NCBI GenBank assembly: GCA_963797125.1
Contig: CAWCOI010000005.1
Coordinates: forward strand, 177,598-241,597
Direction: 5' to 3'
DNA: 64,000 bases
Source of the DNA: an uncultured Thermoleophilia bacterium
GTDB taxonomy: Bacteria; Actinomycetota; Thermoleophilia; Gaiellales; Gaiellaceae
The position numbers and the translations under genes are program-made. The notes under the pieces were generated by a model. The model was not told the origin of the DNA. It did no database searches and saw nothing but the letters and a program-made list of their open reading frames with translations. Each line of letters starts with the position of its first letter. The stretch's first letter is position 1. Below, piece by piece: positions 28,421 through 42,227 of this stretch.

Positions 28421-31021
<2,601 letters not shown>

Positions 31022-31035
31022 CCGGTCGAGACCGC

Positions 31036-31068
31036 GGTGAGGCTTCAGCCTCACCCGCGCGTCCCGTC
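31036..31068 (+). repeat. hairpin element GGTGAGGCTTCAGCCTCACC plus conserved tail (family with copies at 37948 and 38891)
   Basis: 8 bp stem / TTCA loop. 33 nt are near-identical to 37948-37983. It lies 25 nt upstream of the SPFH gene ATG. Confidence 0.45.
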
Positions 31069-36185: not shown

Positions 36186-36539
36186 TCAGGCCGGGCGCTC
36201 CTCGACGAGCTCGTAGAGCTTTCCGTCCGGCGGGCGGAAGTGGGTGTAGCGCCAGCGGGCGTTCTCGCTGATCCCGTCGGTCTCGACGCCTGCGGCGTGG
36301 AGCTCGCGGATGGCCTCGTCGAGATCGCCGACGATGAGGCCGACGGTGCGCTCGCCGACGGCGTCCCCCTCGTCGGGTGGAGCGACCGCGAGGACATCGC
36401 CGTTCGCGGCGGCGAAGAGCGTTGCACCGACGCCGTCGACGGTGACCGGTGTCAGCCCGAGCACGTCCCGGAGGAACGATCCCATTTCGCGATGAGCCGG
36501 CGTGTGGCTGCCGACAAAGCCGATGCCGCGGATCTCCAT
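36186..36539 (-). CDS. VOC/glyoxalase-family protein
   Basis: MEIRGIGFVGSH.. start taken at the internal Met; single VOC domain. Confidence 0.75.
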   Translation of the reverse strand: MEIRGIGFVGSHTPAHREMGSFLRDVLGLTPVTVDGVGATLFAAANGDVLAVAPPDEGDAVGERTVGLIVGDLDEAIRELHAAGVETDGISENARWRYTHFRPPDGKLYELVEERPA

Positions 36540-36592
36540 CTGTTCTCTCTCCTGTGGTTTTCGGCCTGTCTGTTCCGGCCATCTTGACACAC

Positions 36593-36606
36593 GAACATAT
36601 GTTCGT
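36593..36606. promoter_or_regulatory. LexA operator (SOS box) CGAACATATGTTCG overlapping a TTGACA -35-like hexamer upstream of imuB
   Basis: Perfect palindrome matching the Gram-positive/actinobacterial LexA consensus (CGAAC-N4-GTTCG). It lies 18 nt before the imuB GTG. A degenerate second site GAACTACAGGTTC follows at 36611-36623. Confidence 0.75.
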
Positions 36607-36623: not shown

Positions 36624-37823
36624 GTGATCGCCTGCCTCCTCATCCCGGGATTCACGCTTCGCGCAGCGTTGCGCACCCGGCCGAGGCTGGCACTCGTCCC
36701 GGCAGCGCTTGCCCCGGAGCCGGGCAAGGAGGCGCTCGTCGGGCCGGTCACGGCGGCCGCTGAGGCCGCCGGGGTGCAGGTCGGCATGCGCATGGGGGAG
36801 GCGCTCGCCACCTGTCCCGGCCTCGTGCTGATCGAGCAGGATCCCGCGGCGGTGGAGCAGGAGTGGGAGGGGGTCCTGCGCCGCCTGGAGGATGCGGGGT
36901 TCGCCGTCGAGTCGGCCGAGCCCGGTCTCGTCACGTTCGAGACCGGTGGGGTCGAGCGGCTCTACGGAGGAGTGGAGGCGGCGCTGGCCAAGGCGCTCGC
37001 TTCCGTCGGATCTGCCTGGGACCCGCGCGCCGGCGCGGGCGGGCGCCGCTTCGTCGCGCTGGCGGCGGCGAGCGTGGCCCGGCCCGGACAGGCAGTGATC
37101 GTCGAGGGGAAGGAGGAGCAGGGCTTCCTGGAGCCGCTCCCCCTCTCGCTGTTGCCGCTCCCGTCGAACCGGTATGCCGAGCTCGAAGGGCTCGGCGTGC
37201 GTCGGCTCGGCGAGCTGGCGTCGCTTCCCGGCGGCGCCGTGGAGGAGCGGCTGGGGCCGGAGGGGAAGCGGGCGTGGAGCCTCGCGGGCGGGGAGCGGGG
37301 CTCTGCTCGAGCTCCCCGTGTGCGTGGGCGATCGCCTGCGGCAGAGCTGGTGGAGGCCCTCTCCTTCCCCGAGGCGATCGCAAACGAGTTGACGCTGCGG
37401 CGGGCGTTCGGAGCGTTGCTCGACCGGTTGCTGGCGCGGCCGGAGCGGGCGGGGCGGCCGCTGCGCAAGGTGGCGGTCTCGGCCAAGCTCGTCGGCGGCG
37501 GCTCGTGGCGGCGGGCGACGACGTTGCGCGAGGCGACTGCCGAGCGCGGCAGGCTGCGGGCGGCGCTCGGTCCCAAGCTGCTCGAAATCCCGGCTCCGGT
37601 GACCGAGTTGCGGTTGGAGGCGGTGGAGCTCGCCGACCACGTCGGCAACCAGCTCACGCTCGTGTCCCCGGAAGGAGACGAGATGGACGGACGGCTGCGC
37701 GAGGGGCTGAGACAGGTGCGGGCCAGCACGGGCTCGGGCTCCGTGTGCGCAGTGGTGGAGGTGGCACCGTGGTCGCGTATTCCGGAAACGCGCGCGCTCG
37801 TCGTGCCCCGCGACGGGGCCTGA
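36624..37823 (+). CDS. imuB: ImuB (Y-family polymerase-like mutasome subunit), N-terminal module only
   Basis: MIACLLIPGFTLRAAL.. UmuC/DinB-like fold lacking catalytic acidic residues. Followed by dnaE2 and preceded by an SOS box. The ORF stops at 37823 before the usual linker and C-terminal domain. Confidence 0.85.
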   Translation: MIACLLIPGFTLRAALRTRPRLALVPAALAPEPGKEALVGPVTAAAEAAGVQVGMRMGEALATCPGLVLIEQDPAAVEQEWEGVLRRLEDAGFAVESAEPGLVTFETGGVERLYGGVEAALAKALASVGSAWDPRAGAGGRRFVALAAASVARPGQAVIVEGKEEQGFLEPLPLSLLPLPSNRYAELEGLGVRRLGELASLPGGAVEERLGPEGKRAWSLAGGERGSARAPRVRGRSPAAELVEALSFPEAIANELTLRRAFGALLDRLLARPERAGRPLRKVAVSAKLVGGGSWRRATTLREATAERGRLRAALGPKLLEIPAPVTELRLEAVELADHVGNQLTLVSPEGDEMDGRLREGLRQVRASTGSGSVCAVVEVAPWSRIPETRALVVPRDGA

Positions 37824-37899
37824 CGTCGATCTGTGCCGTGGGGCGCGGAGGCGGCGACAGGCTTCAGCTCGTCGTCCGGGCTCCGGCGGCTGTGCAGCT

Positions 37900-37940
37900 G
37901 GTGGCCGGCTTCAGCCGGTCGCCGGTTTGGGCTCTGTCGT
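37900..37940. repeat. about 41 bp repeat R1 (GGTGGCCGGCTTCAGCCGGTCGCCGGTTTGGGCTCTGTCGT); second copy at 38470-38510 (38/41 identical)
   Basis: Direct sequence comparison. It contains the GGCTTCAGCC core hairpin. Confidence 0.5.
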
Positions 37941-37947
37941 GCAGCCG

Positions 37948-37983
37948 GGATGAGGCTTCAGCCTCACCCACCCGTCCCATCCC
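37948..37983 (+). repeat. second copy of the GAGGCTTCAGCCTCACCC(R)C(S)CGTCCC(R)TCC element (first at 31036)
   Basis: Near-identical to 31038-31068. Sits 25 nt upstream of the ATG of the ImuB C-terminal-domain ORF. Confidence 0.45.
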
Positions 37984-38004
37984 GGGCGAGGTCGGAGGTC
38001 ATCC

Positions 38005-38301
38005 ATGAGCACTGCCAGCGGCTCCTGGGCAAGCCGACCCCACGCGCTCTCCCATGCGACCGCTGGCCGCCTCAACGCGCCGCGCCCGGCGCTGGTCGAG
38101 GCCGGGGTCGACGGAGCTCCCTGCGTCGTCAACCGCCAGCAGGTCGCCTTCGTGCGCGAGGAGTGGCGCGTCGTCGACCGCTGGTGGACGGAGGAGCCGC
38201 TCGACCGTCGCTACTACGAGGTCGTGCTCGAATCGGGCCAGAACGTGTGCGTCTACCGCGACCAGGAGAAGGGTTGCTGGTTTACGCAGCGAGGGGCGTG
38301 A
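38005..38301 (+). CDS. ImuB C-terminal domain encoded as a separate 98 aa ORF
   Basis: ...QQVAFVREEWRVVDRWWTEEPLDRRYYEVVLESGQNVCVYRDQEKGCWFTQRG matches the conserved ImuB C-terminal domain (WW...RDY..V...G....YRD....WFL.G). Own GGAGG Shine-Dalgarno 6 nt before the ATG. Different frame from imuB. Confidence 0.7.
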   Translation: MSTASGSWASRPHALSHATAGRLNAPRPALVEAGVDGAPCVVNRQQVAFVREEWRVVDRWWTEEPLDRRYYEVVLESGQNVCVYRDQEKGCWFTQRGA

Positions 38302-38336
38302 AGAAGGTGCGATGAAAAACCGTATCGCACCTTCTT
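38301..38336 (+). terminator. intrinsic-terminator-like hairpin (13 bp perfect stem AAGAAGGTGCGAT/ATCGCACCTTCTT, 10 nt loop)
   Basis: Begins at the stop codon of the ImuB C-terminal-domain ORF; no U-tract, as is common in high-GC genomes. Confidence 0.5.
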
Positions 38337-38469
38337 CGTGCCCCTCGCTGCCGATGTCTTTAGCCGCGCTGCGCGCGGATCCTGAAGCTGGGAACCCTTC
38401 GGGTTCCAACCGGCGATCAGGCGGTGATGACAAGGTTTTTGCTTGCTTCTTGAGCTGCCGTCCAGCGTG

Positions 38470-38510
38470 GTGGCCGGCTTTAGCAGGTCGCCGGTTTGGG
38501 CTCCGTCGTT
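38470..38510. repeat. repeat R2 (copy of R1)
   Basis: GGTGGCCGGCTTTAGCAGGTCGCCGGTTTGGGCTCCGTCGT, in the intergenic gap between the hairpin terminator and the 3' end of the TfoX_N gene. Confidence 0.5.
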
Positions 38511-38523
38511 CCGGTGTCAACGC

Positions 38524-38870
38524 TCAGTCAGGAGAGATGTCGTGATCCTGGCCAAGCGCCTCGTAGGCGAGCGCCTCCCATTCCCCTGCCTGCCCAGAAG
38601 GCACCACTACCCATTGCCGGAAGGGCTGCCCGCGGCCGGAAGGATCGAAGAGATGCGCGTCCGGCAGGGCGAGAGCGCGCCGTTGCACCTCGGGTCGGTC
38701 AGCTTGAACACCATCCCCGTACGCGAGAGCCCGAAGACGAACTTCCCGGCCCGCTTCACGCACGGCATCGAGAACAGCTTCGACGCCCGCGCCTCCTCGT
38801 GCCAGGCGCAGATCGCGTCGACGATGTCGTCGTAACGCTCGCGCACCCGTCCATCGTCGCGCACGTCCAT
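38524..38870 (-). CDS. TfoX/Sxy N-terminal-domain protein (one frameshift)
   Basis: KLFSMPCVKRAGKFVFGLSRTGMVFKLTDP.. then ..DAHLFDPSGRGQPFRQWVVVPSGQAGEWEALAYEAL match the TfoX_N core (MFGG..GKMF..L.LK..DP....F.PMGRGRPM.EWV.VP). Antisense between the imuB fragments and dnaE2. Confidence 0.65.
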
Positions 38871-38956
38871 TCCTCAAAGATACGCAGCCCGACGCCTGGC
38901 TTCAGCCTGGCGTCACACGCCGGAAGGGGATGCGCGCTCCGACCAGTGCGCCAGCC

Positions 38957-41900
38957 ATGACCTACGTCGAGCTCCATTGCCATTCGTCGTACTCGTTCCT
39001 CGACGGAGCCTCACTGCCGGAAGAGCTCGCCGCCCGCGCCGCCGAGCTCGACTACCCGGCGCTCGCCCTCACCGATCACGACGGCGTCTACGGCTCGCTC
39101 GAGTTCGCCCACGCCGCGAAGGGCCTCGGCGTGCGTCCGATCACCGGCGCCGAGGTGACGCTCGACAGCAGCGCGCACCTGACGCTACTCGTCGAGTCCG
39201 GCCAGGGCTACGCGAACCTGTGCCGGATCCTGACCGAGGCGCACGCGGGCACCCGCCGGGCGGGCCGCGAGGATCGCGAGCCGCTGCCTCCGTCCGTCTC
39301 CCAGCGCTTCCTCGAGGAGCATGCCGAGGGGCTCGTCTGCCTCTCGGGCTGCGCCCGCAACGGCCTCGCGGTGCGGGACCCGAACGCCGCCGCCCGGCTC
39401 GCCCGCGCCTTCGGCCGCGAGCGCTTCTTCGTCGAGCTGCAGCGCCCGTTCGAGCGCGGCGACGTGCGCCGCAACACCGCGCTTCAGGATCTCGCCGCAC
39501 ACCTCGGGGTCGACACCGTCGCCACCGGAAACGTCCATGCCCATGCGGCGCGGCGCACGCTGCTCCAGGACACGCTCGTCGCGATCCGCTGCCGCACCTC
39601 CCTCGACGGCTGCGAGCAGGAGCGGCGCGGCAACCGCGAGAGCATCCTCCGCGCTCCGGCGGAGGTGGCGGAGCGCTTCGCCGGCATCGATCCCGCCGCC
39701 GTCTCCCGCACCGTCGAGATCGCCGAGCGCCTGCAGTTCGACCTCACCGAGGAGCTGGGCTACCGCTACCCCGATTTCTCCGACGGCATCGACCCGGCGA
39801 TCCGGCAGCTCGCCACGATCTGCAACGACGCCTTCGCCGACCGCTATTCGCCGAGCAACCGCGGTCTGCAAGCACGCGCACGCGCGCGTCTCGAGTCCGA
39901 GCTCGCGCTCATCGACGAGCTGAAGCTGGCCGGCTTCTTCCTGCTCCACTGGGAGGTGCTCGAGCTCGCGCGTGAATGCGCCCTGCAGGTGCGCGGCCAC
40001 GATTCGCCCCGCCGCTTCCTGCCACCAGGGCGGGGGCGCGGCAGCTCGGTCGGCTCGGTCGTCTGCTATCTGACCGGGCTCTCGCACGTCGACCCGGTCG
40101 CGAACGACCTCTCGCTCGGGCGCTTCCTCAACCACGAGCTAGCCTCGGTGCCGGACATCGACCTCGACTTCCCCCGCGACATCCGCGAGAAGCTGATCGT
40201 CGCCGTCACGGAGCACTACGGCAACGAGCACGCCTCGCTCGTCGCGAGCTTCGCGACGTACCGCTCGCGTGGCGCGATTCGCGATGTCGGCAAGGCGCTC
40301 GGGCTGCCGCAGGCGGAGCTCGAGCGGCTCGCCCGGCTCACCGACGGCTGGGACGCCTCGCGCATCGCCGAGGAGATGGCCGGCCTCCCGGACGCCGACC
40401 GCAAGCTCGTCTCGAAGCGCTGGCGCGCCTTTCAGTTCCTCACGACCGAGATCGCCGGCCTGCCGCGCCACATCTCCCAGCATCCGGGCGGCATGGTGAT
40501 CTCGTCGCGGCCGCTGATCGACCTCGTTCCCGTGCAACCGGCCGCGATGGCGGGGCGCCAGCTCTGCCAGTGGGACAAGGACTCGTGCTCGGACGCCGGC
40601 TTCCTCAAGATCGACCTGCTCGGGCTGGGAATGCTCTCCGCCGTCGAGGACTGCGTAGAGAAGATCGCCGAGATCTACGGGGCGCCGATCGACCTCTCCC
40701 GGATCCCGCTCGACGACGCGGACGTGTTCGACGAGATCCAGCGAGCGGACACGGTCGGCACCTTCCAGATCGAGAGCCGGGCCCAGATGCAGAGCCTGCT
40801 GCGAACGAAGCCCGAGACGATCGACGATCTCACCGTGCAGGTCGCGCTCGTGCGGCCGGGGCCGATCCAGGGCAAGGCGGTGCATCCCTACATCGAGCAC
40901 CGCAAGCGGCTGCGCGAGGATCCCTCGTTCGTCTATCCGGTCGACCACGAGTCGTTGCGCGAGCCGCTGCGCTCGACGCTTGGCGTCGTCGTCTTCCAGG
41001 ATCAGGTGCTCGACGTGGCGATCGCTCTCGCGGGCTTCTCGGTCGGCGAGGCGGAGGGGCTTCGGCGCGCGATGAGCCGCAAGCGCAGCCGGGCCGCGCT
41101 CGAGTCCCATCGGCTGCGGTTCATCGAGGGTGCCGTCGCGAAACGATGTGGCGGAGAAGGTCGCGGACACTGGTCTACGACAAGCTCGTCGGCTTCTCCG
41201 GCTTCGGCTTCCCGAAGTCGCACGCCGCCGCGTTCGGGCTTCTCGCCTACCAGTCGCAGTGGCTGCGCCACCACTATCCCGCCGAGTTTCTCTGCTCGCT
41301 GCTGAACGCCCAGCCGATGGGCTTCTACCCGCCCGCCAGCCTCGTTCGCGATGCGCAGCGGCGCGGGGTGGAGGTGCTCTCGCCCGACGTCAACCTGAGC
41401 GAAGCCTGGTGCTCGCTCGTCGCTTCTGACGCCGAAGATTGTGTCGATTCAACAGAGAGCCCTCAGGCCGTGCGGATCGGCCTCGCGTACCTGCAGTCGG
41501 TCGGAGAGGATGACGCTACGGCTCTCGTCGCCGAGCGCAAGGCGAACGGGACCTTCCGGGACGTCGGCGATCTTGCCCGGCGGGCACAGCTCTCGCAGGA
41601 TGGCCTCGTCGCGCTCGTCGAGGGTGGGGCGTGCGACTGCCTCGGCGTGAAGCGGAGAGACCTGCTCTGGGAGCTCGGCCTCGCCCTGCGGCCTACATCG
41701 GTCCCGGGAACCCAGGGCGCGGTGAAGCAACTCACCCTCTCATCGATCCGACCGCCGCGACCCCCGTGCTCCGTGACCTCACGCGCTGGGAGCAGATGGC
41801 GGCCGACTATCGCCGCACCGGCCTCTCGGTGGGCACCCACCCACTGACGCTGCTCCGGCCGCACCTGCCCGACGGGACGTTACGCAGCGACGGCCTGCAC

Positions 41901-42227
41901 CGCTCCGCGCACGGGTCCACGGTCGCCTACGCGGGCCTCGCAATCGCGCGGCAGAGGCCCGCGACGGCCAACGGGATCGTGTTCATGCTGCTCGAGGACG
42001 AGCTCGGGCAGGTGAACCTGATCGTGCCGAAGCGCGTCTACGAGCAGCACCGGGCGATCGTCCGCAATGAGCCTCTGCTCCTCGCCCACGGACGTTACGA
42101 GCGGGTGGGGGAGAACCGGAACATCCTCGTCACCTCGATCGAGACCCTTGGCTTGCTCGCGCGTCGGGTCTCGGAGCTCGATGTCGGGTCGGCGCTGCCA
42201 CGAGCGCACCACTTCGGACATCGCTGA
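38957..42227 (+). CDS. dnaE2: error-prone DNA polymerase DnaE2/ImuC (at least 2 frameshifts near 41150 and 41700)
   Basis: PHP domain MTYVELHCHSSYSFLDGAS, the polymerase core (GFPKSHAAAFGLLAYQSQWLRHHYP in the second frame) and the OB-fold C-terminus in a third frame. Confidence 0.95.

Follow-up and report, generated by a model that had tools for sequence, protein, structure and literature searches.

The 64,000-nucleotide (nt) window analysed here, the whole stretch of DNA under study, comes from a contig of an uncultured Thermoleophilia bacterium and carries an imuB-dnaE2 cassette in which an inactive Y-family polymerase homologue (iPolY) and the C-terminal domain of ImuB (ImuB-C) are encoded by two separate open reading frames (ORFs). 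The locus very probably represents an iPolY, standalone ImuB-C and DnaE2 mutasome of the order Gaiellales (class Thermoleophilia), of the ImuA-less 'split ImuB' or DnaE2X type, where we infer the membership of the window DnaE2 in the DnaE2X group from the association pattern alone. This assignment stands on the gene identities, the loss of catalytic residues in iPolY, the homology of the small downstream ORF to ImuB-C, and the fact that the split, the SOS box and the gene order are all conserved. What looks like a disrupted or novel imuB is then the normal, published split ImuB, and it is best annotated as iPolY plus ImuB-C and not as a pseudogene or an assembly error.

An earlier interpretation made from the letters alone (here called the sequence-only reading) had placed the main parts of the cassette correctly: the Y-family ORF stops at 37823 (TGA at 37821-37823), the C-terminal-domain ORF follows in a different frame after a gap of 181 nt (given there as 180) with GGAGG-N6-ATG at 38005, and dnaE2 starts at 38957, after an antisense gene. 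The same reading held that ImuB is normally a single polypeptide and called the joining of a TfoX_N gene to the cassette an undescribed arrangement; the view of ImuB as normally single does not agree with the literature, as the combination of a standalone ImuB-C, an inactive PolY and DnaE2 was published in 2013, 2019 and 2026, including a case from Thermoleophilia. ImuB-C was defined in 2013, when it was also noted to occur alone in operons that carry DnaE2 and an inactive DinB (Aravind et al., PMC3765255); Table S4 of Timinskas and Venclovas (2019) lists Conexibacter woesei (Thermoleophilia) as 'iPolY->ImuB-C->{1}->DnaE2' (PMC6511836); and a 2026 survey in Nucleic Acids Research describes iPolY with ImuB-C as 'a split ImuB', tied to the DnaE2X group and to RecA (PMC12926913).

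The separate ImuB-C and iPolY proteins

On profile comparison, the 98-amino-acid (aa) product of the downstream ORF is a standalone ImuB-C domain, as had been proposed from the letters. Because neither Pfam nor NCBIfam gave a match to this protein, its homology had to be sought by profile-profile comparison, for which the C-terminal tails of canonical ImuB proteins were taken from Supplementary Table S4 of PMC6511836. The profile of the 98-aa family aligned by hhalign with the canonical ImuB1 tails at 95.4% probability (E 1.9e-8, 75 columns), with the motifs WW...RDYY...W[VF]xRD...WF aligned between the two. The AlphaFold2 (AF2) model has a disordered N-terminus and an all-beta domain of seven strands (residues 27-95), in agreement with the beta-barrel described for ImuB-C (PMC12926913). 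Homologues of the 98-aa protein number 3487, the best 120 of which are all 83-171 aa long, and the nearest related locus, L003 in a Thermoleophilia metagenome-assembled genome (MAG), is 93% identical over ImuB-C. A sequence profile search of the PDB with the ImuB-C alignment returned only a chance match. No match was found among the PLSDB plasmids by tblastn with either the 98-aa protein or iPolY, plasmid imuB genes being too distant for detection by tblastn with these two queries.

Judging from its alignments, iPolY is a catalytically dead Y-family homologue in which the catalytic carboxylates have been replaced. D103/E104 of E. coli Pol IV correspond to G/L in iPolY, and extension of the alignment register places Pol IV D8 opposite L5. 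Its match to Pfam IMS has an E-value of 1.5e-9, the IMS_C match is sub-threshold (E 0.0011, 19.8 bits against a cut-off of 20.7 bits), and its scores are far under the cut-off of every NCBIfam Pol IV model. The window protein is encoded in a single frame and is 90-96% identical to its nearest relatives, and the C. woesei iPolY (ADB52665.1) is 44% identical to it over the full length (E 5e-74) and co-terminal with it.

Towards the C-terminus of iPolY, a candidate beta-clamp motif, QLTLV, is found at residues 343-347 ahead of a RecA-NT-like motif (approximately residues 353-378), which is followed by a conserved C-terminal tail, EVAPWSRIPETRALVVP. The RecA-NT-like segment and tail of the window protein, ...GRLREGLRQVRASTGSGSVCAVV plus EVAPWSRIPETRALVVP, align with the C. 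woesei motif ETARRARLREGVRQARAAAGPDAALRVL plus AVDPDSRVPERRAVLTPFE, as annotated in Table S4 of PMC6511836. QLTLV, inside the Y-family ORF, is a better clamp-motif candidate than QLVAGF, a hexamer encoded in frame 2 of the spacer. The tail (window 37773-37823) also matches EVEPWSRIPERRYTLIPLGR of Dehalogenimonas, in addition to the Conexibacter sequence. The pattern EV.PWSRIPE.R of the Gaiellales tail recurs in Chloroflexi and Conexibacter, and the tail is a good candidate for a docking peptide of the separate ImuB-C protein.

Conservation of the split in related genomes

A scan of one genome per GTDB species returned at least 577 matches, the 80 best of which are Thermoleophilia/Gaiellales-type MAGs; with this number of species-level matches the module is apparently universal in Gaiellales. 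iPolY and ImuB-C are separate ORFs in 80 of 81 loci, and the ...VVPRD-stop ending of iPolY and the separate start codon recur in independent short-read and long-read assemblies. Measured from the iPolY stop to where the ImuB-C match begins, the distance runs from an overlap (-49 nt) to a gap of +279 nt, and neither the length nor the sequence of the spacer is kept among loci; the repeat-free loci L005 and L018, with spacers of 13-17 nt, are still split. In every sufficiently long locus of the 80 species-level set the gene order is iPolY, the small ORF, usually the antisense gene, 0-2 further genes and dnaE2, so that dnaE2 lies 0.3-2.6 kb 3' of imuB-C where the locus is long enough to include it. 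The dnaE2 gene itself has its best match in NCBIfam NF004225, 'error-prone DNA polymerase', and the intact orthologue in L015 scores 959 bits against the NF004225 cut-off of 939.

A canonical one-polypeptide ImuB, with a Y-family fold joined to ImuB-C, is not what the window encodes, its two parts being kept apart by a stop codon and a change of frame. Taken across these assemblies, the sequences indicate that the iPolY/ImuB-C split is real and old. The sole locus of the 81 with a fused iPolY and ImuB-C ORF is L072:4690-6234, in a long-read MAG (CAVVAZ010000002.1), where the iPolY stop is absent and a 514-aa ORF runs in frame through iPolY, a linker and ImuB-C; this fusion could represent a natural re-fusion or an assembly error.

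SOS control and a possible mechanism

The SOS box CGAACATATGTTCG is the sole perfect CGAAC-N4-GTTCG, a LexA operator of the Gram-positive/actinobacterial type, in the 64-kb window, and 71 of 71 related loci keep a GAAC-N4-GTTC box approximately 30 nt 5' of iPolY, frequently two of them in tandem. The LexA-box control of the cassette proposed earlier is supported, and by its promoter-region operator sequence iPolY-imuB-C is a predicted member of the LexA/SOS regulon. In distant Gaiellales (L022-L082), two tandem SOS boxes spaced 17 nt apart lie about 15 and 32 nt 5' of iPolY, whereas the clade of the window has one. A GAAC-N4-GTTC box is missing ahead of dnaE2 in all 80 loci, and dnaE2 is probably transcribed separately from iPolY-imuB-C. 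A promoter and terminator consensus scan found nothing, as is expected for a high-GC actinobacterium.

Under the split-mutasome assignment, LexA bound to the box at 36592-36605 would repress the iPolY-imuB-C transcription unit, and DNA damage would, through LexA cleavage, lead to the production of both proteins. The dead iPolY would act as an adaptor, with QLTLV reaching the beta-clamp and the RecA-NT-like motif reaching RecA, the latter replacing ImuA, which is presumed to be missing. The separately translated ImuB-C beta-barrel may dock on both the iPolY tail and DnaE2's PHP domain, and the error-prone DnaE2 would thereby be brought to stalled forks, allowing mutagenic bypass.

Several observations weigh against this assignment and mechanism. 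As no locus has an SOS box belonging to dnaE2, and as a strong hairpin and a convergent gene stand between this gene and imuB-C in the window, it is not established that the three components are co-regulated. The frameshifts in dnaE2, if real and not sequencing errors, would mean that the cassette is decaying in this genome. Every protein-protein contact invoked above, as well as the role of RecA, is carried over by analogy from the literature, and the genome-wide absence of imuA and of a canonical full-length imuB, like the presence of recA, is presumed on a view of 64 kb of the genome. Finally, of 17 exact cores of the repeat hairpins (sequence GGCTTCAGCC, described below) in the 80 loci, 12 flank imuB-C, an enrichment that could hint at a local role but might just as well stem from common descent or from a site that tolerates insertion.

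The convergent gene with a predicted TfoX_N-like fold

The antisense gene between imuB-C and dnaE2 had been read as a single 115-aa ORF encoding a competence-type TfoX_N protein. In the window a 1-nt deletion near 38691 divides it between two frames (38607-38870 and 38524-38877), and it reaches 115 aa after repair only; the repaired protein is 66-85% identical to intact homologues. Its family has 678 members in a 90%-clustered database, all of them unnamed and none with a Pfam domain. Neither the repaired window protein nor its L001 orthologue matched Pfam TfoX_N at E <= 1, and among 32 family members such matches were seen in two, the best with an E-value of 0.059. By the yardstick that the sequence-only reading had itself set, the lack of a TfoX_N match for this product formally counts against its TfoX_N identification. 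Among distant relatives reached by profile search (629 cluster representatives), 6 of 10 match TfoX_N with E-values of 2e-5 to 2e-3, some over nearly the whole profile, all of these matches remaining below the 30.1-bit cut-off. The AF2 model of the 115-aa protein has a predicted local distance difference test (pLDDT) score of 93, and its top Foldseek matches in the PDB are the YdhG/DUF1801 proteins 2oc6 (probability 0.97) and 9t2w, VP1028 2od0 (0.95) and YjbR 2fki, all weak at E 0.04-0.3 and a template-modelling (TM) score of about 0.5. We take 2od0, VP1028 of V. parahaemolyticus, to be a TfoX_N protein (PF04993).

By remote and transitive similarity, the antisense product is predicted to be a divergent single-domain protein of TfoX_N/YdhG/YjbR-like fold. 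Its modelled alpha-beta fold is weakly similar by Foldseek to those of TfoX_N, YdhG (DUF1801) and YjbR/MmcQ, and it differs from TfoX/Sxy in that neither the protein nor its close homologues reach Pfam significance and nothing ties it to competence. Because no TfoX_C domain was found in this single-domain protein of 105-120 aa, it is not a TfoX/Sxy competence regulator.

The convergent position beside imuB-C persists down to 46-47% identity (L203, L204) and is conserved within Gaiellales only, a 44%-identical relative (L205) being found in an unrelated neighbourhood; a literature search found no co-mention of TfoX and ImuB. The simplest reading of this placement is inherited synteny within Gaiellales, and a functional link to the cassette is possible but unsupported. 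It is an unlikely, if conceivable, proposition that the split mutasome without ImuA has in the TfoX_N/YjbR-fold protein an accessory factor not recognised before, perhaps a partner that binds DNA or protein, with the hairpins and the terminator described below uncoupling iPolY/ImuB-C from dnaE2 and tuning their relative expression.

REP-like hairpins around imuB-C

The spacer between iPolY and imuB-C consists largely of repeats, and the two repeat copies and four GGCTTCAGCC-type hairpins noted previously are borne out. The repeat is 42 nt long (37899-37940 and 38468-38509, three mismatches) and none would be expected by chance, and GGCTTCAGCC cores are located at 37860 (one mismatch), 37907, 37954 and 38898. 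With up to one mismatch allowed, GGCTTCAGCC has 14 matches in the window against 5.5 expected. The three spacer hairpins form a tandem array with a period of about 47 nt, each with the constant core and with stems that are variable yet complementary. Hairpins of this type are found in the spacer and just 3' of imuB-C in some close relatives and not in others. One sub-type, GGTGAGGCTTCAGCCTCACC, is present in at least 120 metagenome contigs with unrelated flanks, where two copies frequently face each other in inverted orientation; the cassette is carried by only 3 of the 120 contigs listed.

These repeats have the features of repetitive extragenic palindromic (REP) sequences and bacterial interspersed mosaic elements (BIMEs): imperfect palindromes of about 25 nt with a conserved core and variable complementary stems, a strictly intergenic location, tandem or inverted clusters, presence that varies among relatives, and occurrence at many unrelated loci. 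By these sequence features they can be classed as REP-like extragenic palindromes that are multi-copy, dispersed and variably present. The GTAGG motif is the head sequence typical of REPs recognised by REP-associated tyrosine (RAYT) transposases. No RAYT transposase associated with the GGCTTCAGCC family was found, none having been sought, and the GGCTTCAGCC family differs from REPs in being without the typical GTAG head, unlike a second hairpin family, which does have it: this GTAGG-headed family (GTAGGGGCGAKGCG...CGTCGCCC) occurs in the imuB-C spacers of L006, L011, L013, L017 and L019. Another copy, with the hairpin GGGTGAGGCTTCAGCCTCACCC, stands between unrelated genes at 31031-31058 of the window; this hairpin is widely dispersed in soil and sediment metagenome contigs (at least 120 contigs, loci L083-L202), where its copies often form inverted pairs 30-120 nt apart, and it seems to represent a family of REP-like elements in Thermoleophilia-type genomes that has not been described. 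The hairpins were also weighed as CRISPR- or attC-like elements, a reading that was dropped because they lack a spacer architecture and occur as scattered copies. The frame-2 hexamer QLVAGF, which the sequence-only reading had offered as a clamp-like linker motif, was likewise discarded, since it is encoded by a REP-like repeat with copies dispersed across the genome.

It might be suggested that the array is a cassette-specific regulatory RNA, acting as an attenuator, as a processing or stability element, or as a control of iPolY:ImuB-C stoichiometry. The exact cores that flank imuB-C in the 80 loci are nearly always in the sense orientation and lie 28-93 nt 5' of the start codon or just past the stop codon, their stems vary between species with complementarity kept, and the spacer folds better than shuffled sequence (z = -2.65). 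However, the element is absent from many close and all distant relatives, where the ORFs abut or overlap; one sub-type resides in at least 120 unrelated metagenome contexts, with only three near the cassette; a further copy stands between unrelated genes in the window itself (31031-31058); and the copies of close relatives are partly orthologous, which inflates the count. A regulatory RNA of this kind is therefore improbable, as the hairpin element is dispensable in most of the clade. Rfam at the gathering threshold gave no real match over the whole window, and in a permissive search of 37700-39000 the long hairpin alone drew matches, all to generic miRNA precursors and well short of the threshold. 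On the favoured view, REP-like hairpins colonised the locus within a single sub-lineage and play no part in the mechanism.

At the imuB-C stop codon lies a longer hairpin, which had been described as a 13-bp terminator; its arms are in fact 28-29 bp long (38286-38351) and include the stop codon. The surrounding region of 246 nt folds at z = -7.6, and a terminator scan found no T-tailed terminator at this hairpin, which is probably an I-shaped terminator (one with no U-tract) of the iPolY-imuB-C transcript. The loop GCGATGAAAAACCGTATCGC is kept in L011 and L012, where the inner stems are wholly different yet self-complementary. The two-hairpin module that follows, GCCGCGCTKCGCGCGGATCCTGAAGCTGGGAACCYTTCGGGTTCCAACCGGC (38365-38425), is also found in L003 (two copies), L007, L008, L011 and L012. 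No Rfam family reaches threshold for 38286-38425, and the elements in this interval could represent a terminator, a miniature inverted-repeat transposable element or a small RNA.

Frameshifts in the window

At least six frameshifts relative to intact relatives occur within about 12 kb of the window, with frame breaks in a gene near 30460, in a photolyase (~34665), in a methyltransferase (~35848), in the TfoX-like gene (~38691) and in dnaE2 (~41150 and ~41700). The window looks like an unpolished long-read assembly, and ORF-based annotation is therefore unreliable here. It could be argued that the two dnaE2 frameshifts, together with that of the antisense gene, are real, with the cassette decaying and the mutasome non-functional. 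This is very unlikely, as the density of frameshifts is similar in unrelated neighbours (the photolyase and the methyltransferase among them), close inspection of one frameshift showed a 1-nt loss from a short run of G/C, long-read soil MAGs give the closest matches, and iPolY and ImuB-C are intact, at 93-96% identity to relatives. From this sequence context the broken frames of the TfoX-like gene and dnaE2 are attributed to assembly indels.

Age and reality of the split

The sequence-only reading had offered two accounts of the divided imuB, a genuine split created by insertion of miniature repeats and a tfoX_N gene, and a pair of indels. The genuineness of the split stands; the repeats and the tfoX_N gene as its cause do not. 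A recent fission of a fused imuB in this lineage might be suspected from a spacer that is almost wholly repeat hairpins and from the repeats on the far side of the small ORF, but it is highly improbable: 80 of 81 loci are split with or without repeats, and because the repeat-free, short-spacer relatives (L005 and L018) and the many relatives with overlapping ORFs are equally split, the split was not caused by insertion. The tfoX-like gene, moreover, lies 3' of imuB-C and does not separate the halves. The split is common to Conexibacter, of another order, and to Firmicutes, Chloroflexi and Deinococcus systems in the literature, the published examples being Kyrpidia tusciae, Conexibacter woesei, Dehalogenimonas and Deinococcus deserti (PMC6511836, PMC12926913), and the authors of these papers argue for placing the split form before fused ImuB, as its ancestor (PMC6511836) or possible ancestor (PMC12926913).

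A continuous imuB of about 560 aa, in which two sequencing indels would account for the TGA at 37821 and for the change of frame near 37990, is almost certainly not the explanation, even though the window is indel-rich with frameshifts in several genes, frame 2 is indeed open throughout the gap as had been stated (ORF 36863-38008) and L072 carries its fused ORF, since the stop after ...VVPRD and the separate start recur in 80 of 81 loci from independent assemblies, short-read ones included, the spacer varies from overlap to about 280 nt with no conserved frame or peptide, its coding-like content is REP-like repeat DNA, the iPolY of C. woesei, whose genome is finished, terminates at the identical residue, and long open frames arise by chance at such high GC.

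Layout of the locus

The features of the cassette are collected in Table 1. Locally, no co-oriented gene lies 5' of iPolY, the neighbour at 36186-36590 being on the opposite strand. This ORF adjoins iPolY in some relatives only, with 57-81% identity, and the two may share the LexA-controlled intergenic region.

Table 1. Positions of the genes, sites and hairpins of the cassette in the 64-kb window
Feature	Position	Strand	Remarks
134-aa ORF, divergent from the SOS-box region	36186..36590	-	No Pfam match
SOS (LexA/Cheo-type) box CGAACATATGTTCG	36592..36605	.	18 nt 5' of the iPolY start codon
iPolY ORF (inactive Y-family polymerase homologue, 'ImuB N-terminal part')	36624..37823	+	399 aa; TGA 37821-37823
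iPolY/imuB-C spacer, three ~47-nt tandem units with REP-like hairpins	37845..37990	+	Fold and core match
Spacer hairpins with GGCTTCAGCC core	37852-37876, 37899-37923, 37946-37970	+	One per ~47-nt unit
GGAGG ribosome-binding site (RBS)	37991..37995	+	6 nt ahead of the imuB-C ATG; direct reading
Standalone imuB-C ORF, 98 aa	38005..38301	+	ImuB-C homology by hhalign; own RBS
Hairpin with 28-29-bp arms covering the imuB-C stop codon	38286..38351	+	Region fold
Conserved non-coding module, two short hairpins GCCGCGCTGCGCGCGG and GGGAACCCTTCGGGTTCC	38365..38425	+	Fold; recurs in relatives
42-nt repeat copy 2, degenerate REP-like hairpin with core GGCTTTAGCA	38468..38509	+	Repeat and hairpin search
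Convergent 115-aa gene, predicted remote TfoX_N/YdhG/YjbR-fold protein	38524..38870	-	1-nt deletion near 38691
REP-like hairpin GACGCCTGGCTTCAGCCTGGCGTC	38890..38914	+	Divergent region between the TfoX_N-like gene and dnaE2
dnaE2, error-prone C-family polymerase	38957..42227	+	Two frameshifts: ~41145-41170 and ~41640-41745

Comparison with known systems

The window locus agrees with the published split-ImuB module in most respects: an inactive Y-family protein ending in a RecA-NT-like motif and a conserved tail of short length, ImuB-C on a gene of its own (about 95 aa) directly downstream, an SOS box upstream, no adjacent imuA, and dnaE2 close by with one gene between, as in C. woesei. It differs in that the spacer is unusually long and full of REP-like hairpins, that lexA is outside the operon in the window, and that dnaE2 is set apart by a hairpin and the convergent gene. 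The order Gaiellales is also outside the published genome sets ('gaiella' occurs 0 times in the supplementary files), and the comparative set adds to them an apparently Gaiellales-wide module with a strictly conserved SOS box, a boxless dnaE2 and a conserved iPolY tail. What novelty remains lies in the conserved neighbour of predicted TfoX_N-like fold and in the apparent uncoupling of dnaE2 from the SOS-boxed operon.

Gaiellales genomes offer a natural system for studying the ImuB adaptor and the DnaE2-binding domain as separate proteins. With the mycobacterial ImuA'-ImuB-DnaE2 mutasome (Warner et al. 2010; eLife 2023, PMC10421592) the locus shares a LexA-controlled, dead Y-family adaptor with a clamp motif, a candidate one in the window, an ImuB-C domain, which in mycobacteria contacts DnaE2, and a dnaE2 gene outside the adaptor operon. 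The mycobacterial ImuB, however, is one polypeptide of about 525 aa with imuA' directly upstream, whereas the window encodes ImuB-C separately and has its SOS box in the intergenic region between divergent genes.

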